DNA of 43,947 bases from a phage. The notes beneath the pieces are model-generated. The model was not told the origin of the DNA. It made no database searches and saw only the letters and a list, made by a program, of their open reading frames with translations. A program made the translations under genes and the position numbers. Below are positions 1 to 38,869 of the stretch, piece by piece (positions within the stretch are counted from its first letter, which is position 1; the number at the start of each line of letters is the position of its first letter). The stretch lies in sequence record PZ671982.1. One strand, given 5' to 3'.

Positions 1-573
1 ATGAACAAAAGGGCTTATATCATGGCAGAAATCAAAGTTAAAGGCCGTCGCGCCAAACTGGACGGACGAGTGGCGGTAACCCCGCGCCGAAAACCAGGCG
101 AGCAAACCGAGCATACCAATCTCGGACCTGAAATCGAGTACGGAAAGCGCCGTAAAGGCGGCAAATGTGGACGCCCTACTGACTATAGATCCGTTTACTG
201 CGACCAGCTTCGCCGCTATTTTGCCGACGCCGACGCCTGGCAGGTCAACTACTCCGATAAAGGCGCTGCGCAAGTAATCCCTCGCAACAAAATGCCAACC
301 TTCGGTCGATTTGCCGCGGAAATAGGCGTGGGCGTAGCTTGCCTGTATCGCTGGGCGCGTGCACATGAGGAGTTCGCCGAGGCGATGGCGGACGCAATGG
401 AGTTGCAGAAAACTTTCCTGATGGAAGCTGGTGGCGTAACCATCGCGGCGGGCTTCGCTACGTTCCTGCTTAAAGCCAACCACGGCGTCCGGGACGATAT
501 TCCACTGGATGACGACGAAGATGATAACGGCGACGTCGTTGTCGAACCTACCGGCAAAGGTCAGGGTGATTAA
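1..573 (+). CDS. terminase small subunit (putative)
   Basis: ORF directly upstream of and overlapping the large terminase start (TAATG at 571-575); basic N-terminus, acidic C-terminal tail. Window begins at its ATG; an internal ATG at 22 with AAGGG 8 nt upstream may be the true start. Confidence 0.55.
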   Translation: MNKRAYIMAEIKVKGRRAKLDGRVAVTPRRKPGEQTEHTNLGPEIEYGKRRKGGKCGRPTDYRSVYCDQLRRYFADADAWQVNYSDKGAAQVIPRNKMPTFGRFAAEIGVGVACLYRWARAHEEFAEAMADAMELQKTFLMEAGGVTIAAGFATFLLKANHGVRDDIPLDDDEDDNGDVVVEPTGKGQGD

Positions 574-4899: not shown

Positions 4900-5011
4900 C
4901 CCGTCTGCGGACCCCGACGAGGATTTGATGATTGACGTGAAAAATATGGAATGCGGGGCTAAGCTAAGGGCGCAGGTGCTGGAGTTGCAGCAAATAATTA
5001 AGGGGCCGTAA
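4781..5011 (+). CDS. o-spanin (Rz1-like outer-membrane lipoprotein)
   Basis: 76 aa; signal peptide with lipobox LMLSAC, Pro-rich mature part; starts inside the Rz-like ORF in a different frame and extends past it (overlapped spanin architecture). Confidence 0.6.
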   Translation: MLRALTALIVVLMLSACGSSNVPLMPPTESALRPPCKFDNPSADPDEDLMIDVKNMECGAKLRAQVLELQQIIKGP

Positions 5012-5022
5012 TGGCCCCTTTT
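5002..5022 (+). terminator. rho-independent terminator (GGGGCC-gtaat-GGCCCC + T run)
   Basis: Perfect 6-bp GC stem, 5-nt loop, TTTT immediately 3'. Confidence 0.6.
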
Positions 5023-5485: not shown

Positions 5486-5520
5486 CTTGTTTTCCTTCAT
5501 ATCTCTGTTGGTGTGCAACC

Positions 5521-5550
5521 AATATAGCGCAACCAACTCCAGCGAGGCAA
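5521..5550 (-). promoter_or_regulatory. sigma70-like promoter for 5078..5485 (TTGCCT-18-TATATT) containing TTGGTTGCA motif
   Basis: On - strand: TTGCCT, 18-nt spacer, TATATT, then GGTTGCACACCAACA identical to the element upstream of 38927. Confidence 0.4.
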
Positions 5551-5639: not shown

Positions 5640-6344
5640 ATGAAACTTACTAAAGCAGAATATGACGCGTTGCCGGAAGGTATGAAGGCGCTTTTTGTTG
5701 CCGATGGTGACGGGTATAAATCAACGTTCATGACCGCCGAAGAAGTGCAGGCGGAGATCAAGGGTCTGAAAGACAACAACGCGAAGCTGGTGAGCGAGAA
5801 GAAAGCAGAAGCCGAACGCCGCGCCGAAGCTGAGCGCCTTGCGAAAGAGAAAGAGGAAGCCGCCGCGCGCAAAAATGGCGACCTAGAAGCGATCGATAAG
5901 TCCTGGAAAGATAAGTTCGCAAAACATGAAGCGGACACATCGGGGAAAATCGAAGCCTACCGCAAGCAGATTCATGACCTAACCATCGGCAGCGCTGCCA
6001 AAGACCTGGCGTCGAAGCTGTTCGGTAAGAATGCCGGCATCATGCAGCGTCACGTTATGGACCGCCTGGCGCTGGAAGACGGCGAAGACGGCAGCCTGAA
6101 GGTGCGAGTATTAAAGGATGGCAAACCGTCCGCTCTGACGATGGACGAACTGGAAAAAGAGTTCCGTAGTAACGCAGATTTCGCATCTGTCCTGGCTGGC
6201 ACGCCAGCCGGTGGTGCGCCGAGCAAACCGACACAGGTCGTCGAAGATGTGAAGTCGAAAATCACTATGGGCCATAGCTTCGGTATCACTGACTTGACGA
6301 AACAGGCAGGGGATATCATTGCTAAAATGGGCGACGACGAGTAA
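5640..6344 (+). CDS. scaffolding protein (putative)
   Basis: Start at ATG 5640 (RBS GGGGGA); highly charged K/E/A-rich coiled-coil-like sequence immediately upstream of major capsid gene. Confidence 0.6.
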   Translation: MKLTKAEYDALPEGMKALFVADGDGYKSTFMTAEEVQAEIKGLKDNNAKLVSEKKAEAERRAEAERLAKEKEEAAARKNGDLEAIDKSWKDKFAKHEADTSGKIEAYRKQIHDLTIGSAAKDLASKLFGKNAGIMQRHVMDRLALEDGEDGSLKVRVLKDGKPSALTMDELEKEFRSNADFASVLAGTPAGGAPSKPTQVVEDVKSKITMGHSFGITDLTKQAGDIIAKMGDDE

Positions 6345-10416: not shown

Positions 10417-10432
10417 ATTGGAGAATACTACA

Positions 10433-10795
10433 ATGGCTAAAGCACCACTCTTCACACTTGACCCTAAGCCTACTTTTAAGCTGCCGATTGAAATCCCGCG
10501 CCCAGGCGAAAACGAACCGGGCAAAATGACGTTTACCGTGCGCCACCGCCCTATCGACGAATTTTCGCAGACCATGCAGGACACTGAGCGCAAATTGTCG
10601 GAGTATGACGACAATGACCCGGAAGGATTTAACGTTATGGTCGAGGCCATCATGCATGTCGCTGAAGGCTGGAATCTCCCAGACGAATTTAACGCGGAGA
10701 ACGTCCGCCGCCTGGTGGTCAACTACCCTCGCGCGTTCGGAGTGTTCCATACGTCGTACTATCTCGAACTGATGGGATTGCGTGAAAAAAACTAA
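10433..10795 (+). CDS. tail assembly chaperone G-like
   Basis: 120 aa from ATG 10433 (RBS GGAG); acidic; ends in A7 slippery run; located between major tail and tape measure genes. Confidence 0.6.
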   Translation: MAKAPLFTLDPKPTFKLPIEIPRPGENEPGKMTFTVRHRPIDEFSQTMQDTERKLSEYDDNDPEGFNVMVEAIMHVAEGWNLPDEFNAENVRRLVVNYPRAFGVFHTSYYLELMGLREKN

Positions 10796-11109
10796 TTGAG
10801 GCGGCGCGACGCTTTTATGGCCCGCCGCCACCCTCCGAAGATTTAGCCGCGAGTTTATGGGGCGCGGCCCCTGAAGATGTTTGCCCCCCGGTTGCACTAT
10901 GGCCCGACAACGCGAAGATAGTCGCAGTCTTCACAGATTGCTCCACGCAATGGCGCACCGGATTCGGTGGCGCATACGGCATCGACTACGGCGTACTGGA
11001 ATGGCTTTTTAAGATGCACGGCATCGAAAACGCGCAACGTGCGTTTAAAGATATCAAGCTAATGGAACGAGTTGCGCTGGATGAAATGGCGCGACAGAAC
11101 CCCGCATAA
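10433..11109 (+). CDS. tail assembly chaperone GT-like fusion via programmed -1 frameshift at A AAA AAC (10786..10792)
   Basis: The -1 frame is open from 10786 to TAA 11107-11109 (about 106 codons) with no usable start codon of its own; slippery heptamer sits at the last codons of G. Confidence 0.5.
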
Positions 11110-11110
11110 C

Positions 11111-11426
11111 GGAGCGGGACAGGCGGGACGTCCCGTTCTGTCCCGCACCTCTAAAAACTGCATATTTACCCACCAACATTGCATAAATTAAAAGCGGGAC
11201 AGGGGTGCTGTCCCGATCTGTCCCGCCCCCAAAATGTGAATATCTATTCAGTTTTCGCGCATAAAACAAACGGGACAAAAAGCGGGACAGAATGGGGCGG
11301 GACTAAGCGGGACAGCACCCCTGTCCCCGCCAGTGCTGCCGCGGTTTTTAGCCGATCGGGACAGGCGGGACAAAGCCCAGTCTTTCAGACTAGACGGGGG
11401 TCATTGGCCCCCCTCGTCTGAGACTG
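11111..11426 (+). repeat. iteron array A: about 13 direct and inverted GCGGGACA(G) copies, palindromes GGGACAG-N5-CTGTCCC, terminal imperfect hairpin
   Basis: Read directly; 3' ~160 bp closely similar to 38551..38710. Confidence 0.8.
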
Positions 11427-11494
11427 AATAAGGTTTGTTTTAAATTCGCTGATACAATGACCGACGGCAACTGCATAAAAAGGGGGACTGCATA

Positions 11495-14140
11495 ATGGCA
11501 GATCAGGCAGCGGGCATCACGCTCAAGGCGGACGTCGCGCAAATTAAAACGGCTAATACTGTGCTGGACACATTTGCGCAGAAATCCGAGAACACAGAAC
11601 AGAAAGTAAAGAAATTAAACGACACCCTCGGCAAGTCGAAAACGGTTACTGGCGACGCCGCGGGCGGAATGGAAAAGTTAGCGACTGAATCGCAGCGTGC
11701 CGCCGATGGTATGACGAAACAGGAGCGACTCGCCAGCCGATTAGGCATGTCAACCAAAAACCTGGGATTCGCATCGCGGAACGCCGCATTCCAGTTACAG
11801 GATATCGCGGTGACGCTTGAAATGGGTATGCCGGTGCATCGAGTCATGCTTCAGCAGCTACCACAGCTTACTGGGGCGTTTGGCGGGTTGGGGAATACGC
11901 TGCGTTATGTCGTCGGCACCCTCGGACCGATAGGGATCGGAATCGCTGCATTAACGGCAACGCTAGGCGTAGGGGTGGCAATTACGACCCGCGCAGAGAA
12001 CCAGGTGGCGGCGCTTAACAAGACGCTGGCGCTGTCCGGTAATATTTCTGGCCTCACCGCTAACCAGATCCTGGTGCTATCCGAGAACGCCGAGCGGATG
12101 GGTGGGTCATTCCGCAAGACGCGTGACACAATTCAGTCACTGGCGGCGGCGGGTGTGAAGGCTGGTGCTGACTTCGGCGCACTGGCGAAGGTGGTGAATG
12201 ATTTTGCAAAGACGTCGGGCCAGCCTATTGAGGACGTGGTTGCGTCGGTGGCGAAGCTCTCCACTGACCCTGTGGGCGGCTTGCGCGCACTGGCGGATAA
12301 ATATCACGTCGTAAACGAAGCGCAGATCCAGCAGGTGCAGTCGCTTGTGGATATGGGTCGTGAGACAGATGCAGTTGCGCTGGCGAACAAAACCGCCTCG
12401 GCATCGTTCACCACTATGACCAATGAGGTCAAGGCGAACATGGGCACGCTTGAGCGGTCGATGAACGTCGTCACATCGGCAGCCAAATCAATGTGGGATG
12501 CCATTCTGGATGTTGGACGCGCGCAGTCCTCGAATGAGTCCGAGATGAAAGCGCGCGAATCATTGCAGCGCATGACCACGGCTTATTATGCCGAGATGAA
12601 AGCGGTAAACGCTGCCGGTGGGGTAATGACTGAAGCGCAGAAAGCACGTATTAACATGCTTTACAGCGAACTGGTCGCCCAGGAAAAGGTAGTGGCGTCG
12701 CTCACCCTGCGTAACCGTGCGGAGCGAGACAACGCCCGCACCGCAGACGAATCGGCGAAGGCTAACGAGGAGGCCAACCGCGCCGCCAGCGACCGCGCCG
12801 CATTTGAGAAGGAATTCGCCACCAACGCGAAGAAGCGCGCTGACGAGATCGCCCGCCTCAATTTGCTGAACAAGCGCGGTGTTATTAGCGAGAAAGAACT
12901 AGCCGAGGCTGTGAAGCAGGTAAACGAGCGCTACAAAGACCCTGCCCCGAAGAAGGCCGCGGCTGTTCGCGCGGATGCCGGTATGAAAATGCTGGAAGTC
13001 GCACGGAGCGAACTGGCCCAGCTTCGAGAATCCGGCAAGCAGATCGAAGCCAACGCGTCTACGCAGACCCGCACGCAACGCGCTCAGGCGGCCCTAAACA
13101 AGCTGATCGCGGATAATGAGCAGTTAATCGCCGCAAGCAAAGAAAGGGCGCTAACGGCAGCGGAAAAGCAGCAGTTGGTCGAATTCGGACGCGTGAAGGA
13201 AGTGCGCGAGCAGATCGTCGAAGAAGCCAAATTGCTGGACGCGAAGGAGAAGCAGGTCAAGGCGCACGCGCAGATTGATGCCTTCGTTAAGAACCAGAAC
13301 GCCGAACTAAAAGCCACCGCCGCGGGCTATGCGCTTTCCACTCGCGAAGCGGCAAACCTGCGCGAAGAATTGCAGCTAATCGACCGCCTGAAGCGTGTGG
13401 GCGCTAACGATACCGATATTGACAAGGCGGTGTCTAAGCTGCGGGAAGTGCAGGAGGCGCAGACCGGTGCTAACGCCTCGCTAGGGGATGGATTCAGTCG
13501 CGGGCTTAAGGATAGCGTGGATGAAATGGGTAACGGATATACGCAGATGGCGTCGCTCACGAAATTTACATTCAGCGCTATGCAAGACACGATGAACGAG
13601 TTTTTCGAGACTGGCAAGCTGAACGCAAAGGATATGGTTAAATCCATCCTGAGCGAGTTAATCAAGCTGGCTACCTCGCAGGCGTTCAAGTCGATCGTTA
13701 GCGCTTTCGGTGGTGACGGCGGCAAAAACGGATTGTTCGGCGCTATCTTCTCGGGCCTCACTAAGAATGCAGACGGCGGAGCGTACGCAGGGGGCAATCT
13801 CGCGGCTTATTCGGGGAAAGTGGTAAGCCAGCCCACCTTTTTCAGTTATGGCGTCCAGGCGTTCGCTAAGGGCGCAGGATTGATGGGCGAGGCCGGTCCC
13901 GAGGCCATCATGCCTCTGAAGCGCGGGCCGGACGGGAAACTGGGCGTTGCCGCTTCGGGTGCTGGCGGCGGTGGTATGGTCGTGACGACTAACGTTTACA
14001 CGGGGGCGGGTAAAACAGACACCAGTGTGAGCGGACCAGATCCGCGCACAGCGCAGGCGTTCGGCAAGCAAATCACCGAGGCGGTGAAGGCCGAGATCGT
14101 GAAAGCGACGAAACCGGGTGGTGTACTTTACAAACGATGA
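11495..14140 (+). CDS. tail tape measure protein
   Basis: 881 aa, Ala/Gln-rich coiled-coil, Gly-rich C-terminal segment; position after G/GT chaperones. Confidence 0.85.
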   Translation: MADQAAGITLKADVAQIKTANTVLDTFAQKSENTEQKVKKLNDTLGKSKTVTGDAAGGMEKLATESQRAADGMTKQERLASRLGMSTKNLGFASRNAAFQLQDIAVTLEMGMPVHRVMLQQLPQLTGAFGGLGNTLRYVVGTLGPIGIGIAALTATLGVGVAITTRAENQVAALNKTLALSGNISGLTANQILVLSENAERMGGSFRKTRDTIQSLAAAGVKAGADFGALAKVVNDFAKTSGQPIEDVVASVAKLSTDPVGGLRALADKYHVVNEAQIQQVQSLVDMGRETDAVALANKTASASFTTMTNEVKANMGTLERSMNVVTSAAKSMWDAILDVGRAQSSNESEMKARESLQRMTTAYYAEMKAVNAAGGVMTEAQKARINMLYSELVAQEKVVASLTLRNRAERDNARTADESAKANEEANRAASDRAAFEKEFATNAKKRADEIARLNLLNKRGVISEKELAEAVKQVNERYKDPAPKKAAAVRADAGMKMLEVARSELAQLRESGKQIEANASTQTRTQRAQAALNKLIADNEQLIAASKERALTAAEKQQLVEFGRVKEVREQIVEEAKLLDAKEKQVKAHAQIDAFVKNQNAELKATAAGYALSTREAANLREELQLIDRLKRVGANDTDIDKAVSKLREVQEAQTGANASLGDGFSRGLKDSVDEMGNGYTQMASLTKFTFSAMQDTMNEFFETGKLNAKDMVKSILSELIKLATSQAFKSIVSAFGGDGGKNGLFGAIFSGLTKNADGGAYAGGNLAAYSGKVVSQPTFFSYGVQAFAKGAGLMGEAGPEAIMPLKRGPDGKLGVAASGAGGGGMVVTTNVYTGAGKTDTSVSGPDPRTAQAFGKQITEAVKAEIVKATKPGGVLYKR

Positions 14141-21582: not shown

Positions 21583-21610
21583 GTATTACACCGCTCGATC
21601 AAGAATGCAA
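21583..21610 (-). promoter_or_regulatory. sigma70-like promoter (TTGCAT-16-TAATAC) for lipoprotein operon
   Basis: Hexamers read on - strand; -35 is part of ATTGGTTGCAT motif. Confidence 0.4.
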
Positions 21611-21631
21611 CCAATTTATGAGGATTTAGCT

Positions 21632-23437
21632 ATGGCAGCGGGCACACTATCCGTAACGAATAACAGCAAGGCGGTTGTAGGGGTCGGCACAACGTTTACC
21701 TCGTTTAACGCCGGCGACTTCTTAACGCTGGTGGTAGGACAAGTCCCCTACACCGTAGCAATCGCATCTATCGAAAGCGACACGGCGCTTACTCTGGTGT
21801 TACCGTTCGACGGCCCAACGGCAACCGGCCTAGCGTGGGATGGCGTTAAGCGCGATACCATGTCACTGGCAACGATGGGCGTTACCGTACAGGCACAGAA
21901 AGCATTGCGCTTGATGATTGCAGATGAAAACAACTGGCGTGCGATCTTCGGCGACGCTGAAGAAATTACCGTGACGTTACCTAACGGGCAAGTCATGCAG
22001 GGTATGTCATGGGGCTACCTGTCGGAATTGCTTAAGAACGTAGATCCGGTTGAGATGCGCGACCTCGCAGCGCAAGCCGAAGCGTCAAAATCGGCAGCGC
22101 AAGGATTTCGTAATGAGGCCGAAGGCTTCAAGAACGATACGCAGGCCGTCAAAGACCAGACCAACCAGATTAAGGCGGATACGCAGGCCGTCAAAGACCA
22201 GACCAACCAGATTAAGGCGGATACGCAGGCTATCAAAGACCAGACGAACCAGATTAAGGCGGATACGCAGGCTATCAAAGACCAGACGAACCAGATCAAG
22301 ACTGACACCGGCGTTATGAGGGACGAGGCCAACACCGCGAAGACTGACGCGCAAGCTGCCAGCACTGCCGCGCAGGGATTCCGCGATCAGGCCGAGGAGT
22401 GGGCGCAAAGCGTTAACGCGGATAACCTGCTAACCAAATCTGGCAACCTTGCTGGGCTTGCGGATAAAACGGCGTCGTGGGCGAACCTTATGCCCCCCGG
22501 CCCGCTTCGACTCGGAGCGGACCCCATTGCAGATCTGGATGCCGCGACTAAACGCTGGGCGTTGGCCTTATTAAACTATGGCACCGCGATTGATAGATGG
22601 ACGGTACTCTCCGAAGTCGCCACCAAACCCGCTGACGGCAGTGTCGTTGAAGGCGGATCACTCTACTCACGTTATGCCGTTAATGGAATTGCGGAAGCGG
22701 ACATGGCCTTGCGTATCAGAGCGGTGATCGGGGAGGAATACCACGCGCGTCTGGGTGTGTACAACCAAACAAACGGCCGCACCGCCAATTACGACTTTAA
22801 TGATCGAGGCACTTTCTCCGCGCAAAGCCTGCGTTCTTTGGGTCAAATTGACTCCGATGGTGGTATTACTATCCAGAACCAGGGATGGCCCGGCATAACC
22901 TTTAAATCGAATAGGTATGCATCGCCGGACACGCAGGTTGGCGCAATGACATTAATGGAAGCAACGGGGGTAGATGGGGACATCTCTACTGTCAGCCTTA
23001 TCAGGCGGCGTGGGGATGGCAGCAGCACGGGGCAAATCATTGTAACATTCCCAACCACGGCAGGGGTTATCGCGCTGCAAGGTACGTCGGGTCGCGAGTA
23101 TAAGAAAGATATCACCGATGCTGACGCAAGCGAAGCTATGGACCGCATTAACCGCCAGCGCCTTGTTACCTTCGTGTACAAGGACGACGAGCAGCAGCGC
23201 GTGCGCTTCGGTGTTATCGCAGAGGAAGCGGAGTTAATCGCGCCGCAATATATCAAGCACATCGAAGTACCCGTCGAGGATATCCTCGACGAAGACGGCA
23301 ACAAGATCGGGGAGAAAACGGTAGACCGACCGTCCGTAGACGTTAACCCGATCGTGATGGACTTGATGGGGTGTATTCAATATCTCAATAAGCAGGTGGA
23401 GGAATTGAAGGCCGAGATCGAGGCGATGAAGAAATAA
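21632..23437 (+). CDS. lateral (L-shaped-type) tail fiber with C-terminal intramolecular chaperone-like domain
   Basis: Start ATG 21632 (RBS GAGGA); four 14-aa tandem repeats; C-terminal ~110 aa resembles autoproteolytic chaperone domains of phage fibers. Confidence 0.65.
   Translation: MAAGTLSVTNNSKAVVGVGTTFTSFNAGDFLTLVVGQVPYTVAIASIESDTALTLVLPFDGPTATGLAWDGVKRDTMSLATMGVTVQAQKALRLMIADENNWRAIFGDAEEITVTLPNGQVMQGMSWGYLSELLKNVDPVEMRDLAAQAEASKSAAQGFRNEAEGFKNDTQAVKDQTNQIKADTQAVKDQTNQIKADTQAIKDQTNQIKADTQAIKDQTNQIKTDTGVMRDEANTAKTDAQAASTAAQGFRDQAEEWAQSVNADNLLTKSGNLAGLADKTASWANLMPPGPLRLGADPIADLDAATKRWALALLNYGTAIDRWTVLSEVATKPADGSVVEGGSLYSRYAVNGIAEADMALRIRAVIGEEYHARLGVYNQTNGRTANYDFNDRGTFSAQSLRSLGQIDSDGGITIQNQGWPGITFKSNRYASPDTQVGAMTLMEATGVDGDISTVSLIRRRGDGSSTGQIIVTFPTTAGVIALQGTSGREYKKDITDADASEAMDRINRQRLVTFVYKDDEQQRVRFGVIAEEAELIAPQYIKHIEVPVEDILDEDGNKIGEKTVDRPSVDVNPIVMDLMGCIQYLNKQVEELKAEIEAMKK
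22136..22303 (+). repeat. 4 tandem copies of a 42-bp unit inside tail fiber gene
   Basis: Near-identical units starting 22136, 22178, 22220, 22262 encoding DTQA(V/I)KDQTNQIKA. Confidence 0.85.
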
Positions 23438-23440: not shown

Positions 23441-23466
23441 AAAGGGGCCGTATGGCCCCTTTTTTA
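23441..23466. terminator. bidirectional terminator (GGGGCC-gtat-GGCCCC, A run 5', T run 3')
   Basis: Between convergent fiber gene and last early gene. Confidence 0.6.
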
Positions 23467-24039
23467 GTTTGAGTTTTCCCAATCCATTTTGCGCCGCACC
23501 AGCGGGCTTTCGTAATATTCCTTCCCATCCACTTCCACTAAAGGCCAGTCGTTCACTATAACGTATGGCTCCGCGATATCCTCAATCACGCCGTGCGCGC
23601 TATGTTGTCCGAAATCTACGCCCACCAGGATAACCCCGGCAACGCGACGGGTGAGGTATTCGCGAGCGCAACGGGCCTCGACCAGTCCGCGACGGATGCC
23701 GCTGGTAGCTTTTACCTCGTAGGCCCAGACGGCATCAATCATATGTTCTCGGAAGTCGGGGCCGGACTTAACCTTGCGTTTACCGACCATGATAATATCT
23801 CCGCGGTCGATAGTGTTAGCGCTAAACAGGCCGGTACGCATTAGCAAACCTTGCGGGATACAGCTACGCCCGCCTGCCTGCCCTTCGAGGTACATGCCAG
23901 CAAACATTTCGCCTAGCACACCTACGAGTCTGCTTTGCTTGCACGCGTCAGACTTGTATCGCCACTGGTCAAACTCGATGCTTGCTATCATTGCCGCCAG
24001 GTGGAATTGTTTACCGGTTATTTCGTATTCGCCGTACAT
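23464..24039 (-). CDS. hypothetical protein, possible PD-(D/E)xK-type nuclease fold
   Basis: 191 aa, RBS GAGGA; motif GDIIMVG...IDAVWAYEVK suggests D...ExK core (weak). Confidence 0.45.
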   Translation of the reverse strand: MYGEYEITGKQFHLAAMIASIEFDQWRYKSDACKQSRLVGVLGEMFAGMYLEGQAGGRSCIPQGLLMRTGLFSANTIDRGDIIMVGKRKVKSGPDFREHMIDAVWAYEVKATSGIRRGLVEARCAREYLTRRVAGVILVGVDFGQHSAHGVIEDIAEPYVIVNDWPLVEVDGKEYYESPLVRRKMDWENSN

Positions 24040-24081
24040 CGTGTGGTCCTCATTGATGCGGGCCGAAGCCCGCGATTAGAA

Positions 24082-24591
24082 TTATTTAAGTGCGCCAGTC
24101 ACCAGTGTTTTTTCCATGTTACGGAAATCTTCCTGCGTCATGCAGATTTTCGATCCGTCTTCGCCAGTGAGCACGACCATAGGCTGGACGTCCTGATCTA
24201 CGATGCCAAAATTAGCGGCTGTAACCGTTTTACCGGGGGTAAATGCGCCGCCTGTTTTGACGGGCCAACCTTTGAGGCTATCGAATTGTGCTGCCGTTGT
24301 ATCGATCTGAATCTCGTCATGCCCGGTCATGTAAGACTCGCCCAGCAGGGCGGCATACGCCACCAGATCCACGATGTTATCTTCCTGGTGCTTACGGTGC
24401 TGGCGCACCAGCTTCAGGCAGATCAGGAAGGTCCAGGCTTCTTGCTCGGTAAGGTCGCGACCGGTAAGCGCGTTAAACACGGCAGCAATTTGTTTAGCGC
24501 TGCGTTCTTCTTTCGCGTTGTCATAGCCGTTTTCTTTCCCGCGCTGTTCCATAGTGGTGGCGGCGTTTTTGCAGTATTCGAATGCTTTCAC
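24082..24591 (-). CDS. hypothetical protein
   Basis: ORF extends to 24669 but that N-terminus is built from the TTGGTTGCA promoter palindrome; more likely start GTG 24591 (RBS AAGGG) or ATG 24552. Confidence 0.45.
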   Translation of the reverse strand: MKAFEYCKNAATTMEQRGKENGYDNAKEERSAKQIAAVFNALTGRDLTEQEAWTFLICLKLVRQHRKHQEDNIVDLVAYAALLGESYMTGHDEIQIDTTAAQFDSLKGWPVKTGGAFTPGKTVTAANFGIVDQDVQPMVVLTGEDGSKICMTQEDFRNMEKTLVTGALK

Positions 24592-24639
24592 AGTATTACC
24601 CTTTTTTAGCGAGGGGGCGGTATTGCCCCCGACACGTTT

Positions 24640-24669
24640 ACTATAGTGCAACCAACCTATTGGTTGCAA
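24640..24669 (-). promoter_or_regulatory. sigma70-like promoter (TTGCAA-18-TATAGT) inside a perfect TGCAACCAA/TTGGTTGCA palindrome
   Basis: Read on - strand; followed by 5' UTR hairpin GGGGGC-ggtatt-GCCCCC (24611..24634). Confidence 0.35.
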
Positions 24670-25127
24670 GTGAATTTTGCAACGTTTATCGCGTAAATTT
24701 TCGGGACCAAATCACCACACGCCCGGCGAATTGCCGCGATGTTCTTCTCGCAATCTTCAATGATGACCAGTTCCGACACGTCCGCATAGCAGACCATTTT
24801 GAACACGGCGCACGCCTTAAACTCTGGCGGCGGGGTGTCGTCCAGCATGTGGCGCATGAATAACCGACCTACGGGGAAGACTTCCAGTTGTTCGGCGGTG
24901 GTGCCCCAACATTCTCGCTGCCGGTTGGTTAGATACGCGATCTCGAAGCCTTGCTCTTTATACATGCGCAGTAGCGGCAGCATATCCATGTTAAGGTCTT
25001 CGCGGACGTGCGCCTTGTGCCACTTCGCCCAGAAGGTGGATTTAGTTTTTATACCCGGCACCAGGTCGGCACGCGCATCGCTTGAACCATTAATAACGCC
25101 ATCCAAATCGCAAATCAGTAATTTCAT
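24657..25127 (-). CDS. HAD-superfamily phosphatase-like protein
   Basis: N-terminal LICDLDGV (DxDG[TV] motif I), RBS GAGGA. Confidence 0.55.
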   Translation of the reverse strand: MKLLICDLDGVINGSSDARADLVPGIKTKSTFWAKWHKAHVREDLNMDMLPLLRMYKEQGFEIAYLTNRQRECWGTTAEQLEVFPVGRLFMRHMLDDTPPPEFKACAVFKMVCYADVSELVIIEDCEKNIAAIRRACGDLVPKIYAINVAKFTCNQ

Positions 25128-25348
25128 TTCAATTCCTCAATCAAATTTTCACGAACAATACGGGCGGAAAACGTGTCACACACAAGATGGCATTTGGCAG
25201 CCATTACAAGCCCGCCAGTAAGGTCCATGCCAAGCAATTGCTCCGGGCGGCTGCAACGCCGCACTTTGTTCTCCCTCGGGTTAATTTGGTAGCGTTTAAC
25301 AATTTCGTCCACGACGCGCGGACTGCGATCAACGATTAAGATATTCAT
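25124..25348 (-). CDS. hypothetical protein (74 aa)
   Basis: ORF with ATG 25348; overlaps neighbours in operon fashion. Confidence 0.4.
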   Translation of the reverse strand: MNILIVDRSPRVVDEIVKRYQINPRENKVRRCSRPEQLLGMDLTGGLVMAAKCHLVCDTFSARIVRENLIEELK

Positions 25349-25814
25349 GTAGCTCACTCTCGCTCATTATTTCAATTTGTGCGCTGCCGGTGGGTGGCGC
25401 TTCGTCAAAGATTATCAATTGCTGGCACTTGTTATTGCTCGGCCCGACTTCACCGGTCACAGCATGTATAAATCGGATACGCCAGTCCAGAAGAATTATC
25501 AGGTTTGCAGTCTTCCGGGCCAGCTTCGCCCACTTCGTCGACGTGTCCTGATTCAGTAGCATGACGGTCCGGCGTCCGTGCGCTGCGCACTCGACCCACG
25601 GCAGCGGATCGGAATACGGCGGGTTGCACCACTTCCACCCTTCCAACTCTGACCAGTCCGCATCGAGCGCGCTGTGCTCCGCCGTGAAGTAACGCGGTAG
25701 CAGGTGGTTGGCATCGCTCGCCGCCATGTCATAACGGAATCGGTACTTCCGGCGCAGCGGTTTAAATAAAGCTGGCGGCGTGCGCCAGCTATCTTTTTGC
25801 TCATTCTTCTGCAT
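25329..25814 (-). CDS. DNA N6-adenine methyltransferase (phage Dam-type)
   Basis: 161 aa with WRTPPALF, DMAASDANH and catalytic NPPY motifs characteristic of small phage Dam enzymes. Confidence 0.75.
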   Translation of the reverse strand: MQKNEQKDSWRTPPALFKPLRRKYRFRYDMAASDANHLLPRYFTAEHSALDADWSELEGWKWCNPPYSDPLPWVECAAHGRRTVMLLNQDTSTKWAKLARKTANLIILLDWRIRFIHAVTGEVGPSNNKCQQLIIFDEAPPTGSAQIEIMSESELHEYLNR

Positions 25815-26259
25815 GATCTGGATCTATCGCGTACAGGGCAATTTTCTTATTACTGTTTAGAACGCGTTGCACGCGCTTTAATTCCTCGGTGCCGAGCGGT
25901 CGGCAGTCGGAGTAGTAAGACCCGTTCCCCCGCCACGCAACCAGCACCAGGTCTTTCCGGTCAATCTTAGACTGGCGGCCCTTCGGACGCACGTACTCCT
26001 CGGCCCGTTTGCAATGCTCACGCAGACCATCGGCAGTGATGCGGTTTAGTGCAACGCTGGTGGTGTATCCGGTGCGCTGCATAATCCCCATCAATTCGAA
26101 AAGCAGTTCGAAGCGCTCCTCTAGCTCCTGGCGCACTTTCTTCTCGCCCTCATATAGCGCCTGGTTGGTGTCCGCCAACGCGTTCGCACGTTCGGCTTGT
26201 TCGCGGGCTTCGAGGCATTGCGCGGCCCAGTAATTTTTCTCTTCTTGTAAAATTTTCAT
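25801..26259 (-). CDS. hypothetical protein with N-terminal coiled coil
   Basis: 152 aa, RBS GGAGA; strong promoter directly upstream. Confidence 0.5.
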   Translation of the reverse strand: MKILQEEKNYWAAQCLEAREQAERANALADTNQALYEGEKKVRQELEERFELLFELMGIMQRTGYTTSVALNRITADGLREHCKRAEEYVRPKGRQSKIDRKDLVLVAWRGNGSYYSDCRPLGTEELKRVQRVLNSNKKIALYAIDPDHAEE

Positions 26260-26306
26260 CGTGTTGTCTCCGGGTATTAAAAAGGGCGTCCAAACCGGAC
26301 ACCCTC

Positions 26307-26335
26307 AATATAATGCAACCAATATGATTATGCAA
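26307..26335 (-). promoter_or_regulatory. sigma70-like promoter (TTGCAT-17-TATATT) built from tandem ATTGGTTGCAT motifs
   Basis: Read on - strand, about 40 nt upstream of ATG 26259. Confidence 0.5.
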
Positions 26336-26340
26336 CCAAT

Positions 26341-26664
26341 TTACGAATAAAAATTTGGGTCGCGTGCAACGTCTACCAGATACAGGTTACTAATGCGGTT
26401 GCCGTAATGGCCTGGCGTGCGCTGACGGCACACAACGGCATAGCCTGGAGGGATTGTATTGCCAGTCTCAATAATCCACGCCACGCGTGCGCCAGACAGC
26501 GTCTTGCCGTTGCATTCGATACGAGTACCGCCATCGGCAGTATTGAGGTTGCCAATCTTGCAGCCGGTGGACTTTAGGCGGATAACGCCTGTTTTGCTGT
26601 CGTAGGAAAAAAGCTGATTGGTCATTGCCACTGAAAAATCGATGGCTTCGAATGTAGTGTTCAT
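26341..26664 (-). CDS. HNH_3/NUMOD4-like small protein (degenerate HNH endonuclease-like)
   Basis: 107 aa; pattern YDSKTG...IPPGYAV...GNRISNLYLV resembles N-terminal and DNR..NL parts of HNH_3 proteins but canonical His residues not evident. Confidence 0.35.
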   Translation of the reverse strand: MNTTFEAIDFSVAMTNQLFSYDSKTGVIRLKSTGCKIGNLNTADGGTRIECNGKTLSGARVAWIIETGNTIPPGYAVVCRQRTPGHYGNRISNLYLVDVARDPNFYS

Positions 26665-27371
26665 TCTAAATTTTCCTCGTTAACCGCTATCGCGAAGCCG
26701 CGCGGGGTGAGCGACCTGATTAATTTGGTGCGGGCAGATTTGCCTCCGAGGCGACTATACTGCTTCGAGTAACCTTTTTCAACGAAAACAGGTTTCTTCT
26801 CGGGCATACGGAAGCCGTTTCCAGTCCATAAGCAGGTCAGCTTCGGATATGAATCGCGGGCGTTGATGTATTCAGGGAAGAGCGGGTGTACGTCATCCTC
26901 TGGCAGATATCCGCCATACTCCCACGGGTCAAACGAGTGGTCCGGCTTACGCCACTGGGTGGAAAGCACGCTGCGCGGATTCTCAATCATATATGGCACT
27001 TCGAAGAAATCACCCAGGTAAGCTGCGATCTTCGCGGTGCGCACCGCCTTAAGCTGGAAGGCTGGGTCGCGGGCGCGTTTGCGCGGGAAAGCTGGCGCAC
27101 CGCTAACCGCCAGATCCGTACACGGCGGGAATGCGTAAATGATATCCGGCGTGCCGAAATCGCCATTCATCGCGCGATCCACGAAGTCCAGGTCTATAAA
27201 CTCATTACGATAGCGAATGCCGCGACCATAGATCCGGTAGTCCAGGTAAGACCCGTGATCGGCTTCGGAGTAGTTGAAGCAATAACACTTATGCCCCATC
27301 TCGGCAGCACGCTCAATCATCAAGCCGCTGCCGTCAAACAATGACCAGATTGTCATTTTAGCAATAGTCAT
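26661..27371 (-). CDS. DNA (cytosine-5)-methyltransferase-like protein (compact)
   Basis: Motif I-like SLFDGSG, motif IV-like FPPC, motif VI-like IENP; only 236 aa, so target-recognition region is short or absent. Confidence 0.5.
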   Translation of the reverse strand: MTIAKMTIWSLFDGSGLMIERAAEMGHKCYCFNYSEADHGSYLDYRIYGRGIRYRNEFIDLDFVDRAMNGDFGTPDIIYAFPPCTDLAVSGAPAFPRKRARDPAFQLKAVRTAKIAAYLGDFFEVPYMIENPRSVLSTQWRKPDHSFDPWEYGGYLPEDDVHPLFPEYINARDSYPKLTCLWTGNGFRMPEKKPVFVEKGYSKQYSRLGGKSARTKLIRSLTPRGFAIAVNEENLE

Positions 27372-28792
27372 TTGCGCGCCTTTTTAGCTTTCATGTATTC
27401 CATTAGATCGTCCTGGATATCGCGCTTACTGTCGCGACGCTCGGCGACCAGTTCGTCCAGTGTGCCGCGCGCCTGGATAATGTAGACGAATACCGGACGA
27501 GGGTGTCCGGCTTGCATCTGGCGAACTGGCCCGATACGCTCCACGATCTGCGCAAAGTGCTCATAGTTCCAGGTGTCTGAGAAGATAGCAAGGTGGTGTC
27601 CACCATCCTGCAAGTTAAGGCCGTGACCCGCCGATGCCGGGTGTGCGAACATGATGGGGATCTCGCCCCTGTTCCACGCTTCCATATCCTTATTTCCTTG
27701 CTTTCCCTTACCCATCGCGACGCCGTGCGGGAATTTCTTCTTAAGACGTGCCAAGTCATGCTTGTACTGGTACGCGACGAGCAACGGTGCGCCGTTCAAC
27801 TCCTCCACGATACTTTCCAGCGCGTCCAGTTTAGCGTCGTGAATTTTCACCCATTCGTCGGTGCGCTCGCCGTCTTCGTCGACTTTATACACGGCCCCAG
27901 AAGCAAGCTGAAGGCACTTAATAGTCTTCGATGCCGCGTTCGCCGCTTCCACTGTTCCGCTTTCCAGTTCGGCAAATAGCTCGCTTTCAAACTGGTCGTA
28001 AATCTTGCGGGCTTTCTTCGGCAGATCCACAACAACCGGCGTATATATTGGCTTGTCACATCCGAAGTATTCAGCCGCGTCAACGGTGAGGGATACATCA
28101 GACAGGCGTTGTTGTATTTCTTTCTCGGAGTTCTTTAGCGGGGCGTGCTGCATAGTGAAGCTGCCAGGCTTAACAGGCTTGCTAATAAACCAGCGATCCG
28201 TAAATGCCGTATAGCTACTGCCGAGGCGTTCGCCACCATCGACAAACCACGTCTGACCCCATAAGTCTTTCAGCCCGTTGGGTGCGGGTGTGCCGGTAAG
28301 GTTAATCCAGCGCTTGACGTGCTTATGTGCGATCGCCGCCAGTGCGCGTGCGCGCTTACTACCCTGCTTGCTACGATAGCCTTTCAGCTTAGTCGATTCA
28401 TCGGCAACAACGACCGTAAAGGGCCACGCATCGCCGTAATAGTCTACCAGCCACTCAACCACATCGTAGTTAACACAAACCACGTTAGCGTCGCTCTCAA
28501 GCGCTGCGATACGGTCCTTCTCCGGCCCAGTGCCGTCTACGACCAGCAGGGATGAGAACCGCCATTTCTCCTGCTCCGGGGGCCAGGTGCCAGATGCAAC
28601 GCGCAGCGGGGCCAGCACCAGTACGCGGTCCTCCTGGTTGGACAGGATGCCAGTCTGGAACATTTTGTTTAACGCCCACATGGTCGCGCCAGTTTTACCC
28701 GACCCCATTGTCGCCCAAATATTACAACGCTTATGCTTGAGGATGAACGCGGTTATCAACTTCTGATATTCGCGACGTCTGAATCTTGCCAT
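27368..28792 (-). CDS. SNF2-family helicase
   Basis: Walker A GSGKTG, DEST box, SNF2-type LTGTPAPN motif; 474 aa. Confidence 0.7.
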   Translation of the reverse strand: MARFRRREYQKLITAFILKHKRCNIWATMGSGKTGATMWALNKMFQTGILSNQEDRVLVLAPLRVASGTWPPEQEKWRFSSLLVVDGTGPEKDRIAALESDANVVCVNYDVVEWLVDYYGDAWPFTVVVADESTKLKGYRSKQGSKRARALAAIAHKHVKRWINLTGTPAPNGLKDLWGQTWFVDGGERLGSSYTAFTDRWFISKPVKPGSFTMQHAPLKNSEKEIQQRLSDVSLTVDAAEYFGCDKPIYTPVVVDLPKKARKIYDQFESELFAELESGTVEAANAASKTIKCLQLASGAVYKVDEDGERTDEWVKIHDAKLDALESIVEELNGAPLLVAYQYKHDLARLKKKFPHGVAMGKGKQGNKDMEAWNRGEIPIMFAHPASAGHGLNLQDGGHHLAIFSDTWNYEHFAQIVERIGPVRQMQAGHPRPVFVYIIQARGTLDELVAERRDSKRDIQDDLMEYMKAKKARK

Positions 28793-28837
28793 ATCTCTAC
28801 GTCTCTCGAAAACGGCGGGCTTGTCCCGCCGTATTGA

Positions 28838-29011
28838 TTATTCTTGCGCTGCGCGGTAGCGGCGCTGCCGTTCGCGCTCTTTCTTATTGCGGCATGATTT
28901 GCACTCGGCACGATACCCATCGGGGCTGCGCGCAGTTTTGCCGGTGTATTTATGGAACTGGGACAGCGGTTTAACACAACCGCAATTACTGCAGCGTTTT
29001 TCTTCAATCAT
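28838..29011 (-). CDS. small zinc-ribbon protein (57 aa)
   Basis: ATG 29011 with RBS GAGGA; CSNCGC...CKSC four-cysteine pattern; basic C-terminus. Confidence 0.4.
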   Translation of the reverse strand: MIEEKRCSNCGCVKPLSQFHKYTGKTARSPDGYRAECKSCRNKKERERQRRYRAAQE

Positions 29012-29042
29012 TTCTAAAATCCTCGTTAGTGCTAACCTGCTC

Positions 29043-29071
29043 ACTATACTGTTAAGCGACCAATTCAGCAA
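29043..29071 (-). promoter_or_regulatory. sigma70-like promoter (TTGCTG-17-TATAGT) with ATTGGTTGC motif
   Basis: Read on - strand upstream of zinc-ribbon gene. Confidence 0.35.
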
Positions 29072-29330
29072 CCAATAAATCACAGTCGGCTATGTTGTCG
29101 ATAACGCGAACGTCCGCACCGCGGCGGGCCATTCGCTCATGTTCTCGTACCTGGTGCGGCTTCGGTTTGCCGCCGGGTCGCTTCACTTCGACGAAAACTA
29201 TCTTGCCGTTGATGATGATTATAAGGTCTGGCGCTCCCGCGCGCCCCTCCCATGCCACTTTACGGCAGAATCCGCCGACGGCTTTAACCAACTTCATAAG
29301 GTGACTTTGGATCTTGCCTTCTGGTGTCAT
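29052..29330 (-). CDS. VRR-NUC domain nuclease
   Basis: PDLIIIINGKIVFVEVKRPGGKPKPHQ matches the VRR-NUC PD-(D/E)xK signature; start ATG 29330 overlaps upstream stop (ATGA). Confidence 0.7.
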   Translation of the reverse strand: MTPEGKIQSHLMKLVKAVGGFCRKVAWEGRAGAPDLIIIINGKIVFVEVKRPGGKPKPHQVREHERMARRGADVRVIDNIADCDLLVAELVA

Positions 29331-29659: not shown

Positions 29660-29663
29660 AGTC

Positions 29664-32180: not shown

Positions 32181-32903
32181 TTAACGGCGGCGACGTTTAC
32201 GTGGTGCTTCGTCTTCGTCGTCTTCGTCCTCATCCTCATCGTCGCGCGGCTTACGACGTTTACGAGGTTTTTCATCTTCGTCATCATCGCGGCGCTTGGA
32301 CTTTTTGGACTTGCGCGGGCTTTCATCTTCGTCATCATCGCCCAGGTCTTCGTCGGAGCAAGAAGACCCGCCACCGCCGAAGGCTTCACCGTCATCACGG
32401 AAGCGTAAACCCAGCAAGCCAGCACCGAGTCCCTTGCCGTTGGTATTGTTCCACGCCCAAATATCCAAGGACACGTTGCAATAACAACCGGAGTAGATCT
32501 CCTGGCCTTCGATCTCGTCGCCTTCTACGGTCAGACCTTGTTCCGTCTGCTTCTCGCCGAGTGACGTTTGAATGACCGGCTGTTTGAACGATTTGGCGTT
32601 GATGTACAACATGCCTTCGAATTCTTCGGTTACTTCGTCGCGCTCGTCACCGTCGCGAACTGCGCATTCCTTAGAATCCTGGGCGTAGTGGCGGTCCATC
32701 CACTTATCAGCATTCTTCTCGGATTTCAGCTTGTCGGTGAGCACTGCGCGCGCTGCCGCTTCCACTTTGTCCACCTGCGGGTCTTCTTTATCAAGAAGAA
32801 TCACTGCGCGGTATGCCGGTTTTTGTCCATCCTGTTTAGGGGTATCACGTTCCCAAATTTTAAGGAAACATACGCGCACATTTTTCAGGTTGACTTTAGC
32901 CAT
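32181..32903 (-). CDS. ssDNA-binding-like protein with acidic/basic low-complexity C-terminal tail
   Basis: ATG 32903 (RBS GAGGA); C-terminal DDDEDE and KRR repeats; resembles phage SSB-like proteins that co-occur with Cas4-like nucleases. Confidence 0.5.
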   Translation of the reverse strand: MAKVNLKNVRVCFLKIWERDTPKQDGQKPAYRAVILLDKEDPQVDKVEAAARAVLTDKLKSEKNADKWMDRHYAQDSKECAVRDGDERDEVTEEFEGMLYINAKSFKQPVIQTSLGEKQTEQGLTVEGDEIEGQEIYSGCYCNVSLDIWAWNNTNGKGLGAGLLGLRFRDDGEAFGGGGSSCSDEDLGDDDEDESPRKSKKSKRRDDDEDEKPRKRRKPRDDEDEDEDDEDEAPRKRRRR

Positions 32904-32967
32904 TTTCCAATTCCTCATTTTACATGTATCGGGGTTATTGTAAGCCACCCCGTTCGGCTTGGTTGCT

Positions 32968-34612: not shown

Positions 34613-34613
34613 A

Positions 34614-35746: not shown

Positions 35747-36175
35747 ATGAGCACAAACGAGACCTTAAATCGCTGGAACCATAAGAAATGGCCCCACCAA
35801 ATTAACCGCGCCACCGAGGATGATAATACCATCGCTTTCGGCGATATGGACGCGGACCCTATGACCCCTGAGCAAATAGCCGCCGATGTGCTGTCAATGG
35901 ACCGACATACGGCTTCGGAAATAATCGTTGCTCTGATAAACGAAATAAGCGGCAGCTATAACGAACTGAATGACCTGTACGCGGAGCTTGACCTGTTGAA
36001 AGGTGGTGCTATCGCAGCGGTGCGTAAATCCGAAGAGGCAGCACGCGAGATGGCTATCGCCCGCGAGAAATATATGCCTGTCGTTAAGCGCCTGCGTGCG
36101 GAAGGCTTGTCATGGAATCAGATCGCCGAGATGACTGGAATCAACCGTTCTACAATCCGCCAGTGGGCTAAATGA
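35747..36175 (+). CDS. HTH DNA-binding protein (putative regulator)
   Basis: 142 aa; C-terminal GLSWNQIAEMTGINRSTIRQWAK helix-turn-helix-like segment. Confidence 0.55.
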   Translation: MSTNETLNRWNHKKWPHQINRATEDDNTIAFGDMDADPMTPEQIAADVLSMDRHTASEIIVALINEISGSYNELNDLYAELDLLKGGAIAAVRKSEEAAREMAIAREKYMPVVKRLRAEGLSWNQIAEMTGINRSTIRQWAK

Positions 36176-38447: not shown

Positions 38448-38550
38448 ATTTTGCGCGCATTGGTTGCCATTTTGAGTGTTTTTAACTGGTCGCATTGGTT
38501 GCCGTGTAGTGTAAATATAGTGAATAGTTATGCAGTTTTATTGCATAAAG

Positions 38551-38710
38551 TAAGCGGGACAAAAAGCGGGACAGACCAGGGGCGGGACAAAGCGGGACAG
38601 CACCCCTGTCCCGCCCCGGATGACGCGGCCTGGAGAGGAGCGGGACAGGCGGGACAAACCCCAGTCTTTCAGACTAGACGGGGGTCAGTTGGCCCCCCTC
38701 GTCTGAGACT
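38551..38710 (+). repeat. iteron array B: 6 direct + 1 inverted GCGGGACA copies and terminal imperfect hairpin; flanked by inverted CGCATTGGTTGCC repeats and AT-rich tracts
   Basis: Read directly; closely similar to 11268..11426. Confidence 0.8.
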
Positions 38711-38869
38711 GCATAAAATCCTGGATTGCATAATACACGGCAGCACATTGGAAATCGCGGTCGTCGCTGAACTAGGCAACCAATGCGAGTTGCAGAACGG
38801 TTGGTGAAAATGCAGTTTGCAGTCACAGCAGATAGCGATCGACTTTTTCATGCGCGTGATTAATATTGG

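Follow-up and report, generated by a model that had tools for sequence, protein, structure and literature searches.

The stretch of DNA analysed here, 43,947 nucleotides of a phage genome (sequence record PZ671982.1; the window), contains an array of short repeats, or iterons, within its tail operon (array A) and a related array B 27 kb away, behind the gene for a primase-helicase. The region of array A matches 159 phage records, nearly all of them Escherichia or Shigella Dhillonvirus, with 80-97% identity. Judged by these matches, the window is a Dhillonvirus genome. The G chaperone open reading frame (ORF) ahead of array A spans 10418..10795. Near its end it contains an A7 slippery run (10784-10790) which, by its sequence, is the expected programmed G/GT frameshift site. 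The -1 frame beyond this run is open for 108 codons up to a stop at 11107-11109, and the tape-measure ORF begins at 11495. Therefore 11110-11494, a gap of 385 bp, is non-coding. The original prediction, made from the letters alone, had placed a non-coding iteron array between the G/GT chaperone and the tape measure, and coordinates and content are as it described.

Counted by the GGGAC core, array A has 14 (G)CGGGACA sites, 9 direct and 5 inverted; the predicted figures of about 8 and 5 were essentially right. Two palindromes GGGACAG-N5-CTGTCCC, likewise foreseen, are located at 11196-11214 and 11309-11327. The 5' sites are grouped in two modules, A1 and A2, of 35 bp each. Each module has on its 3' side an AT-rich spacer, as had been claimed (11148-11192, 69% A+T, and 11228-11269, 67%, vs 45.7% for the window). 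The array closes with the long imperfect hairpin that had been recognised beforehand (11378-11426; 49 nt, stem about 20 bp). It has a folding energy of -28.4 kcal/mol (z = -4.9), and both strands fold about equally well. No U-tract follows the array hairpins, the next letters being AATAAGG or CATAAAA, i.e., they do not have the form of an intrinsic terminator. An extended -10 element, TGaTACAAT, is situated 24 nt 3' of the array A hairpin. The window contains 16 exact copies of GCGGGACA, where 2.09 are expected. None of 100 shuffles reached 16, and 14 of these copies reside within 11114-11372 or 38554-38656.

Array B begins 107 nt past the stop codon of the primase-helicase gene and separates the replication genes from those for lysis and structure. 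Aligning 11231-11431 with 38513-38716 gives 84.9% identity over 205 bp, with a divergent middle of about 30 bp. The similarity of the 3' part of array A to a second array is thus real and slightly longer than had been stated. This unit is the sole dispersed repeat of at least 40 bp in the window. Its parts are two-orientation (G)CGGGACA iterons, AT-rich tracts, a long hairpin and an outward promoter-like element ending in ACGGCARC; the -10-like element ahead of this octamer is the same in A and B. Array A possesses two extra palindromic modules which are absent from array B and which would suit a head-to-head assembly of helicases. Two ORFs, an 80-aa frame at 11179..11421 and a look-alike at 38451..38807, were considered as coding and rejected, because related genomes carry 1-nt indels in them; their apparent 'homology' is due to the DNA repeat only.

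A separate observation concerns a second motif. The common unit opens with the palindrome TTATGCA-N7-TGCATAA, perfect in B (38528-38548) and weaker in A (11243-11266), which is conserved as TATGCA-N7-TGCATA in other genomes. A direct TGCATAA pair lies 3' of each hairpin (11472/11489 in A, 38710/38727 in B). Palindrome and pairs look like the binding site of a different, dimeric protein.

The gap between the chaperone and tape-measure genes was aligned for 15 Dhillonvirus genomes, picked via the G chaperone protein and hence independently of the repeats; this protein search reached close Dhillonviruses only. The iteron core columns have a mean conservation of 0.94 (71% invariant), the other non-coding columns one of 0.85 (45% invariant; Mann-Whitney p = 6e-6). 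The spacers of array A vary among these genomes by 1-nt indels. On the scale of the genus, at least 80% of region A is covered in 152 of the 159 phage records, every record has at least two matching places among the matches listed, and array A is at the same site in essentially all 159 Dhillonvirus records. The motif search in related phages, which had been suggested as a check, thus finds both arrays conserved across Dhillonvirus. Identity between A copies of different genomes (88%) exceeds identity between A and B within a genome (80%). Therefore, array A is an old orthologous locus and not a recent duplication. Concerted evolution of A and B was considered and rejected: A-B identity within genomes, 80.1%, is barely above that between genomes, 78.1%, which speaks for patchy sharing of variants and against strong homogenisation.

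A wider picture emerges beyond the genus. IMG/VR was scanned for spaced CGGGACA, and the ORFs neighbouring the arrays were compared all against all. Dense mixed-orientation CGGGACA arrays exist in many contigs outside Dhillonvirus, at 51-71% GC. The comparison resulted in one dominant conserved neighbour, a large primase-helicase: 34 of 56 motif-selected irregular CGGGACA arrays start about -80 to +50 bp from the 3' end of its gene. The linked enzymes belong to at least two helicase classes, AAA_25 and P-loop SF3-like. Other neighbours are VirE-like proteins and short proteins ending in winged-helix-like sequence. Because arrays elsewhere adjoin the 3' end of the helicase gene, array B occupies the family-typical position and array A is the extra copy. 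When 100,044 bacterial genomes were scanned for three spaced CGGGACA, most finds were simple tandem repeats (period 7-15) in unrelated organisms; true irregular arrays were few (L160, from Streptomyces, L171 and L254), and the scan says little on distribution. As an aside, two stretches of high-GC DNA carry paired mixed-orientation CGGGACA arrays about 1 kb apart, with 17+23 and 20+12 copies (L160:10056-10383 + 11046-11581, Streptomyces sp. NRRL S-455; L024:4562-4858 + 5843-6064). The arrays at L160:10056 and L024:4562 follow a short ORF with a winged-helix-like end, in place of a helicase detectable with the query set used.

The same linkage is found when the protein is the starting point. 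Four relatives, L275 to L278, were fetched by the sequence of the window protein alone, and all four have a gap of 440-650 bp after the helicase gene which is filled with iterons. Across these relatives the iteron follows the recognition helix of the protein; helices differ and repeats differ. L275 (67% identity to the window protein) combines the helix GGTNTTAINALIERG with the iteron GCGGGACAA and the same hairpin, L276 (48%) combines TSGNYKKVLEELVRRR with ACTCGCAA, L277 (46%) AGGKRRPAIQSLIDRK with GCTGCCAAC, and L278 (48%) TSAHYGKTLAKMAERG with TTGCGA / CTCGCAA. The Rhizobium phages 16-3 and RHph_X2_25 each carry CGTGACA 16 times, 3' of their primase-helicase genes. In the contigs L021, L022 and L052 a protein 68% identical to that of the Rhizobium phages is accompanied by CGGGACA, and the layout is the same, including even the terminal hairpin with its flanking inverted repeats. 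Arrays of the 16-3 group end in a canonical GC hairpin and a T-run. Between the CGTGACA and CGGGACA groups the proteins are 80-95% identical in the helicase core and 29-43% in the last ~100 aa, whereas inside each group these C-terminal ~100 aa are conserved. At the level of sequence comparison, then, the repeat co-varies with the predicted C-terminal winged-helix domain of the primase-helicase.

A second copy is not restricted to Dhillonvirus. The Klebsiella phage VLCpiS11a (Guernseyvirinae), a named relative of L276, has its first array after the helicase gene. In VLCpiS11a as well as in L276 a second unit follows the head-morphogenesis gene and precedes the spanin and scaffold genes. Both arrays of VLCpiS11a carry ACTCGCAA, that phage's own iteron. 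The order of parts in its second unit equals that in the window, i.e., iterons, AT-rich tract, iterons, hairpin, ACGGCAGC, and both units end in a -10-like element and then ACGGCARC. In each of the two genera the second copy resides within the late operon. For the array types of L277 and L278, a search of the phage collection turned up no named relative.

The primase-helicase itself is a composite enzyme, consisting of an archaeo-eukaryotic primase (AEP) region, a Cys/His cluster, a RepA-like helicase and a predicted winged helix. Searching its sequence against PDB gave no meaningful match, only a weak one to RepA (1g8y), which made a fold prediction necessary; phmmer against PDB sequences matched no P4 protein. 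The N-terminal 345 aa include an AEP primase-polymerase fold, with the cyanophage S-2L PrimPol (6zp9) as best match (E = 5e-5). D86, D88 and D162 are invariant and H119 is nearly so (at least 90%). The C-terminal 99 aa were modelled as H1-b-H2-H3-wing with a mean predicted local distance difference test (pLDDT) score of 77, about 80-92 over residues 11-70. In a Foldseek search the best matches of this segment were without exception DNA binders of the winged-helix type (MarR family, histone H1, the winged-helix domain of ORC2), at weak E-values (0.02-0.2) and probabilities of 0.9-1.0. Among the scanned ORFs no other replication-initiator family was present. The 142-aa helix-turn-helix (HTH) protein encoded directly upstream, the other candidate binder of the original prediction, has weak matches to sigma-70 region 4 and HTH_23. 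The comparisons point to the primase-helicase rather than to this HTH protein as the likely iteron binder; the latter is less favoured, though still possible in Dhillonvirus.

These observations indicate what the arrays may be for. The repeats are far above chance, AT-rich DNA is alongside, a protein with a predicted DNA-binding domain is encoded by the gene adjoining them, and domain and repeat co-vary. Anatomy, linkage and co-variation fit the origins of self-loading primase-helicases which read repeats beside their own gene, such as P4 alpha, SaPI Rep and pRN1 ORF904 (PMC4234260). The primase-helicase most likely binds the iteron arrays, to judge from these comparisons, and the phage probably has two origin-like sites, as does the Bacillus phage SPP1. 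With a confidence somewhat above even we propose that the replication-origin module is present twice in the phage, array A being the second copy, and that it is bound by the phage's own AEP-primase/RepA-like helicase. The C-terminal winged helix of this enzyme would bind the iterons; many protomers would assemble on the palindromic groups of sites and open the AT-rich DNA or the hairpin; the enzyme would load itself and prime DNA synthesis. Copy B, right after the enzyme gene, would be the family-typical site. Copy A would serve as a second initiator-binding locus, either a second origin or a tightly bound site where forks stall, and as a stall site it could help to bring about concatemer synthesis, a role that has been proposed for SPP1 oriR. 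Copy A may fire as an origin, block forks, act as a handcuffing partner or be a promoter module. An origin was what the original prediction had in mind when it pointed to iterons next to AT-rich DNA; this part is favoured by the arrays after primase-helicase genes and by the C-terminal co-variation. Taken as a whole, with origin, partition site and sites for a late activator as its three readings, the original prediction is partly supported.

Several points weigh against this proposal. The analysis shows architecture and conservation of the repeats, their linkage to the helicase gene and their co-variation with its C-terminal domain, whereas binding, melting, initiation and the specific role of copy A are inferred. 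GC/AT skew has no signal at either array; it tracks gene orientation and is therefore uninformative on origins. In a Jerseyvirus, Salmonella phage vB_SEnST11_KE04, the primase-helicase has a homologue of full length (44% identity, C-terminal winged helix included), and the phage has neither a gap after the gene nor an iteron cluster or dispersed repeat, so the enzyme can work without such arrays. Phage 16-3 has one array only; hence a second copy is not required in the family. The C-terminal sequences of proteins adjoining CGGGACA arrays visibly differ from each other, which is unexplained if one fold reads one heptamer. Lastly, in Dhillonvirus and Guernseyvirinae, phages with different iterons differ in the small upstream HTH protein too, which makes this protein a confounded alternative binder. 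In the searchable literature neither the origin of a Dhillonvirus nor these repeats were found to be described, and a full-text search for the heptamer returned only primers for the polymerase chain reaction. Known short signals, namely DnaA box, Pho box, dif/XerCD, Chi, REP, mimics of CRISPR repeats and the sigma-54 promoter, were compared by eye and rejected for want of a match.

The arrays could also be modules of transcriptional control. A DNA-binding phage protein, be it the primase-helicase, the 142-aa HTH protein (35747..36175) or another factor, would occupy the repeats and thereby activate the promoter downstream of them or insulate it; early and late genes would meet at copy B, and copy A would provide the tape-measure and distal tail genes with a late promoter of their own. 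A binding site for an activator of late transcription had been the alternative offered by the original prediction, and it stays possible, as a conserved extended -10 promoter element lies after array A: TGaTACAAT is invariant in 15 genomes, and a -10-like element with ACGGCARC ends both window units as well as both units of VLCpiS11a. Both arrays are upstream of promoter-like elements at operon boundaries, B between replication and lysis/structural genes and the second copy in the late operon of each genus; a transcriptional role fits this equally, a further point against the origin proposal. The weak sigma-70 region 4 and HTH_23 matches of the small HTH protein tend in the same direction. Yet across 34 loci the helicase gene is the only conserved neighbour of the arrays, whatever is downstream, and the iteron change in the 16-3 group tracks specifically the C-terminal domain of the helicase. 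Further, 14 sites in two orientations with AT-rich tracts and a hairpin with a 20-bp stem are the classic anatomy of an origin and not of activator sites, and the sigma-70 scan of the array regions detected no full promoter. On balance we regard transcriptional control as possible but rather unlikely, though it is a serious rival of the origin proposal or may be a function in addition to it. An RNA element in the long rightward transcript (a terminator, a processing site, an antitermination signal or another non-coding RNA structure) would account for stable hairpins (-28.4 and -28.9 kcal/mol, z = -4.9 and -4.6) with invariant stems and a variable loop, and for the canonical GC hairpin plus T-run at the end of the 16-3 group arrays. 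The Dhillonvirus hairpin, in contrast, is without a U-tract, the terminator scan of the plus strand made no call in either array region, a search of Rfam 15 at the gathering threshold gave zero matches for these regions, and a tRNA/tmRNA search of them found none. Both strands fold about equally well, the variation of the stems is too small for a covariation test, and 21 oriented heptamers as well as the co-variation with a protein domain are left unexplained, all of which renders an RNA element improbable.

Copy A might have no function of its own and be a neutral or selfish duplication of the origin region, a recombination scar or an insertion resembling a miniature inverted-repeat transposable element. 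Compared with Guernseyvirinae, in which nothing separates the chaperone gene from the tape-measure gene, copy A is indeed inserted DNA, A and B have a 205-bp unit in common, and the patchy sharing of variants suggests occasional gene conversion. We nevertheless give this possibility little credit, because A occupies the same site in essentially all 159 Dhillonvirus records, its iteron cores are under stronger constraint than the spacers, it has gained two palindromic modules that B does not have, the identities quoted above mark it as an old orthologous locus, and the Klebsiella phage has an independent second copy. Dispersed clusters of short repeats also resemble the centromeres of N15 or P1 and some pac sites, and the arrays could then be partition or packaging sites bound by a ParB-like protein or by terminase. 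The partition site of the original prediction finds no support: among 27 ORFs scanned, a set in which small ORFs are not all covered, there was no ParA/ParB family match, nor was an integrase, a repressor or a plasmid-maintenance family among the scanned ORFs. Dhillonviruses, moreover, are presumably virulent. The arrays are far from the small terminase gene (1..573), and their linkage is to the helicase gene. Partition or packaging is thus hardly credible.

A more far-reaching design can be envisaged, which we put forward tentatively and with considerable doubt. The two arrays would form a paired replication-control system instead of an origin with a spare. In this design the AEP-primase/helicase would find in the late-operon copy a programmed place to land or to be blocked, by which the direction of replication and its mode (theta to concatemer) would be fixed and the expression of tail genes tied to replication. 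ACGGCARC may be the start signal of the AEP primase, the design would have arisen independently of SPP1 in Gram-negative siphophages, and winged helix plus iteron would be a module exchangeable between unrelated primase-helicase architectures. Dhillonviruses are common E. coli phages; the BASEL collection includes them, and studies of phage defence make use of them. For these phages the analysis yields an origin concrete enough to be tested, and it proposes the C-terminal winged helix of the primase-helicase as candidate binder. At least two Gram-negative phage lineages have conserved a second origin-like site within the structural operon, so this design is no peculiarity of SPP1; the proposed fork-stalling switch from theta to concatemer synthesis thus becomes testable with E. 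coli genetics. The pairs of iteron and winged helix (CGGGACA, CGTGACA, ACTCGCAA, GCTGCCAAC) constitute a natural specificity series which is usable to study or to engineer orthogonal phage and plasmid replicons.

The structural block of the window, from terminase to tail fibres, comprises 1-23437 on the plus strand in a siphophage-type gene order. Next comes a leftward block for replication and recombination (23464-35573), which encodes a family A DNA polymerase, an Enc34-type single-stranded DNA-binding protein (SSB), a PD-(D/E)XK exonuclease, a SNF2 helicase, a VRR-NUC nuclease and Dam. From 35747 a rightward block starts with the HTH protein and continues with the primase-helicase. The coordinates of the arrays and of the enzyme are collected in Table 1.

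Table 1. Components of the two origin-like units and regions of the primase-helicase in the window
Feature	Position	Strand	Remarks
Palindromic four-site iteron module A1	11113..11147	+	direct GCGGGACA 11114, GCGGGACG 11123; inverted cores 11130, 11140
AT-rich spacer 1	11148..11192	.	69% A+T, with TGCATA motifs
Iteron module A2	11193..11227	+	~84% identical to A1; 1 direct + 2 inverted sites, including palindrome GGGACAG-N5-CTGTCCC
AT-rich spacer 2	11228..11269	.	67% A+T; start of unit common to array B (from ~11231)
Four direct iterons and one degenerate inverted	11270..11329	+	direct at 11270, 11282, 11297, 11307; includes second GGGACAG-N5-CTGTCCC palindrome
Copy-specific middle segment	11330..11355	.	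A differs from B; conserved among A copies
Tandem iteron pair TCGGGACAGGCGGGACA	11356..11372	+	9-bp spacing
Long imperfect hairpin, array A	11378..11426	+	stems invariant, loop variable in 15 genomes; no U-tract
Extended -10 promoter-like element TGaTACAAT	11450..11458	+	invariant in 15 related genomes; sigma-70 consensus match by eye
ACGGCAAC	11464..11471	+	one of 50 ACGGCARC octamer copies; closes origin-like unit A
Direct TGCATAA pair	11472..11497	+	flanks ribosome-binding site; second copy overlaps tape-measure start codon 11495
Primase-helicase gene, 753 aa	36186..38447	+	proposed iteron binder
AEP PrimPol fold	aa 1-200 of primase-helicase
Cys/His cluster	aa 245-284 of primase-helicase
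AAA_25 RepA-like helicase	aa 356-530		E = 2.8e-19
C-terminal winged helix	~aa 664-740 (nt ~38175-38405)		predicted
AT-rich leader of array B	38448..38553	.	64% A+T; two ATTGGTTGC motifs; perfect TTATGCA-N7-TGCATAA palindrome 38528-38548
Array B, 6 direct + 1 inverted GCGGGACA sites	38554..38656	+	next after primase-helicase stop codon
Array B hairpin	38662..38711	+	near-identical to that of array A; -28.9 kcal/mol, z = -4.6
ACGGCAGC octamer	38737..38744	+	closes unit B

Other motifs and repeats are present in the window. The octamer ACGGCA(A/G)C has 50 copies against 4.6 expected (largest number in a shuffle, 11), 38 on the plus and 12 on the minus strand. It is the most frequent 8-mer of the window and occurs in all three codon phases, e.g., at 1451, 2274, 11464, 38737 and 43726. 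It closes each origin-like unit in the window and in VLCpiS11a. Its density is ~1/kb in the window, 0.8-1.2/kb in L275-L278, 0.54/kb in the Jerseyvirus (L134) and 0.24-0.30/kb in 16-3, so that phages with this enzyme are enriched in it and 16-3 much less so; it may be a primase start or another polar DNA signal. The motif ATTGGTTGC(A) has 13 exact copies, and with at most 1 mismatch 25 copies vs 12.3 expected (0/100 shuffles). Positions of ATTGGTTGC are 5515, 5529, 21492, 21607, 24648, 24659, 26315, 26332, 29056, 29068, 35549, 38459, 38494, 38776, 38865 and 38896; of the copies that were placed, most are between ORFs, and they are often paired. The pair at 38865-38904 brackets a sigma-70-like promoter, TTGCAT-N17-TATATT. 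The motif differs from the iterons and probably serves as promoter or operator of early or middle genes. At 38891-38916 there is a 27-bp promoter-like sequence (…GCCCGCACCCTGCTATATTGGTTGCAC), which has a 96% identical inverted copy at 5502-5528 (minus strand), in the head region ahead of an ORF on the minus strand. At 22094-22345, five repeats of 42 bp (14 codons) stand in tandem with 68-100% identity; they lie inside the 610-aa ORF 21605..23437, which probably encodes a tail fibre. Two canonical terminator hairpins, near-identical to each other (GGGGCCGTAATGGCCCC then TTTT), are found at 5000-5022, after the ORFs downstream of the head-morphogenesis gene, and at 23441-23463, behind ORF 21605..23437, with which the plus-strand ORFs of the structural block end. 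Finally, 32191-32341 in the minus-strand gene 32181..32948 would encode a repetitive acidic C-terminal tail.

How do the two arrays compare with known replicons? The alpha protein of the satellite phage P4 is a multifunctional primase-helicase with a C-terminal winged helix that binds the origin, as is proposed for the window enzyme. The P4 iterons are short octamers, direct and inverted, and the same protein binds two cis sites, ori and crr. In contrast, the alpha helicase belongs to SF3 (D5-like) and its primase is not of the AEP type; the window helicase is a RecA-fold AAA_25 and hence not of the P4 alpha type. Also, ori and crr are ~4.5 kb apart, whereas 27 kb separate the arrays here and the second site is in the structural operon.

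In the SaPI family the origins consist of iterons beside an AT-rich region after the rep gene. Like the pri-rep-ori segment of SaPI and the pRN1 ORF904-type replicons, the window has an array immediately downstream of the primase-helicase gene. Unlike the window, these replicons have a single origin and helicases of SF3 or other classes, not AAA_25, and pRN1 is without an iteron array. The SaPI helicases are described as self-loading (PMC9371898). In pRN1 a large stem-loop of the origin downstream of the primase-helicase gene is essential, and its authors noted similar stem-loops after comparable bacteriophage genes (PMC4234260). The IncQ plasmid RSF1010 has in common with the window a RepA-family (AAA_25) helicase and iterons adjoining an AT-rich region. 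It differs in using three separate proteins (RepC, RepA, RepB') and 20-bp iterons, and in having no second origin. Hairpins of its oriV, ssiA/ssiB, are primase entry sites (PMC8567376). RSF1010 has two ssi hairpins on opposite strands, the window one hairpin per unit.

The closest analogue is SPP1. The site of the second copy in VLCpiS11a, after the head-morphogenesis and before the scaffold gene, we take to be roughly that of SPP1 oriR on the gene map. SPP1 has oriL at its initiator gene, and its oriR breaks into the late operon; transcription signals lie on either side of oriR, and the protein that binds it is the one that also binds oriL (PMC6316719). The original prediction had called two copies, one of them inside the tail module, unusual; this is a fair description, for which SPP1 with oriL and oriR nonetheless sets a precedent (PMC6316719). 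Bound by the initiator, oriR has been proposed to stall forks and to bring about the switch from theta to concatemer replication (PMC6316719, PMC3485210). The likeness extends to a siphophage genome of about 44 kb with two distant, similarly organised arrays of repeats plus an AT-rich unwinding element, one at the initiator gene and the other interrupting the late structural gene order, bracketed by transcription signals. Further, genes for an exonuclease, an SSB and a VRR-NUC nuclease are present in the window, and in the SPP1 model enzymes of these kinds process the stalled fork. The differences are equally clear. The SPP1 initiator G38P is non-homologous, and SPP1 employs separate proteins, G38P, the loader G39P and the DnaB-type helicase G40P, whereas the window enzyme unites AEP primase, RepA-like helicase and winged helix in a single polypeptide. 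SPP1 oriL is inside gene 38, array B is after the gene; the repeats are unrelated in sequence, and the window arrays are known from sequence alone. As its enzyme lacks homology to the initiators of SPP1 or P4, the Dhillonvirus system is an analogue of these systems and not a member of either.

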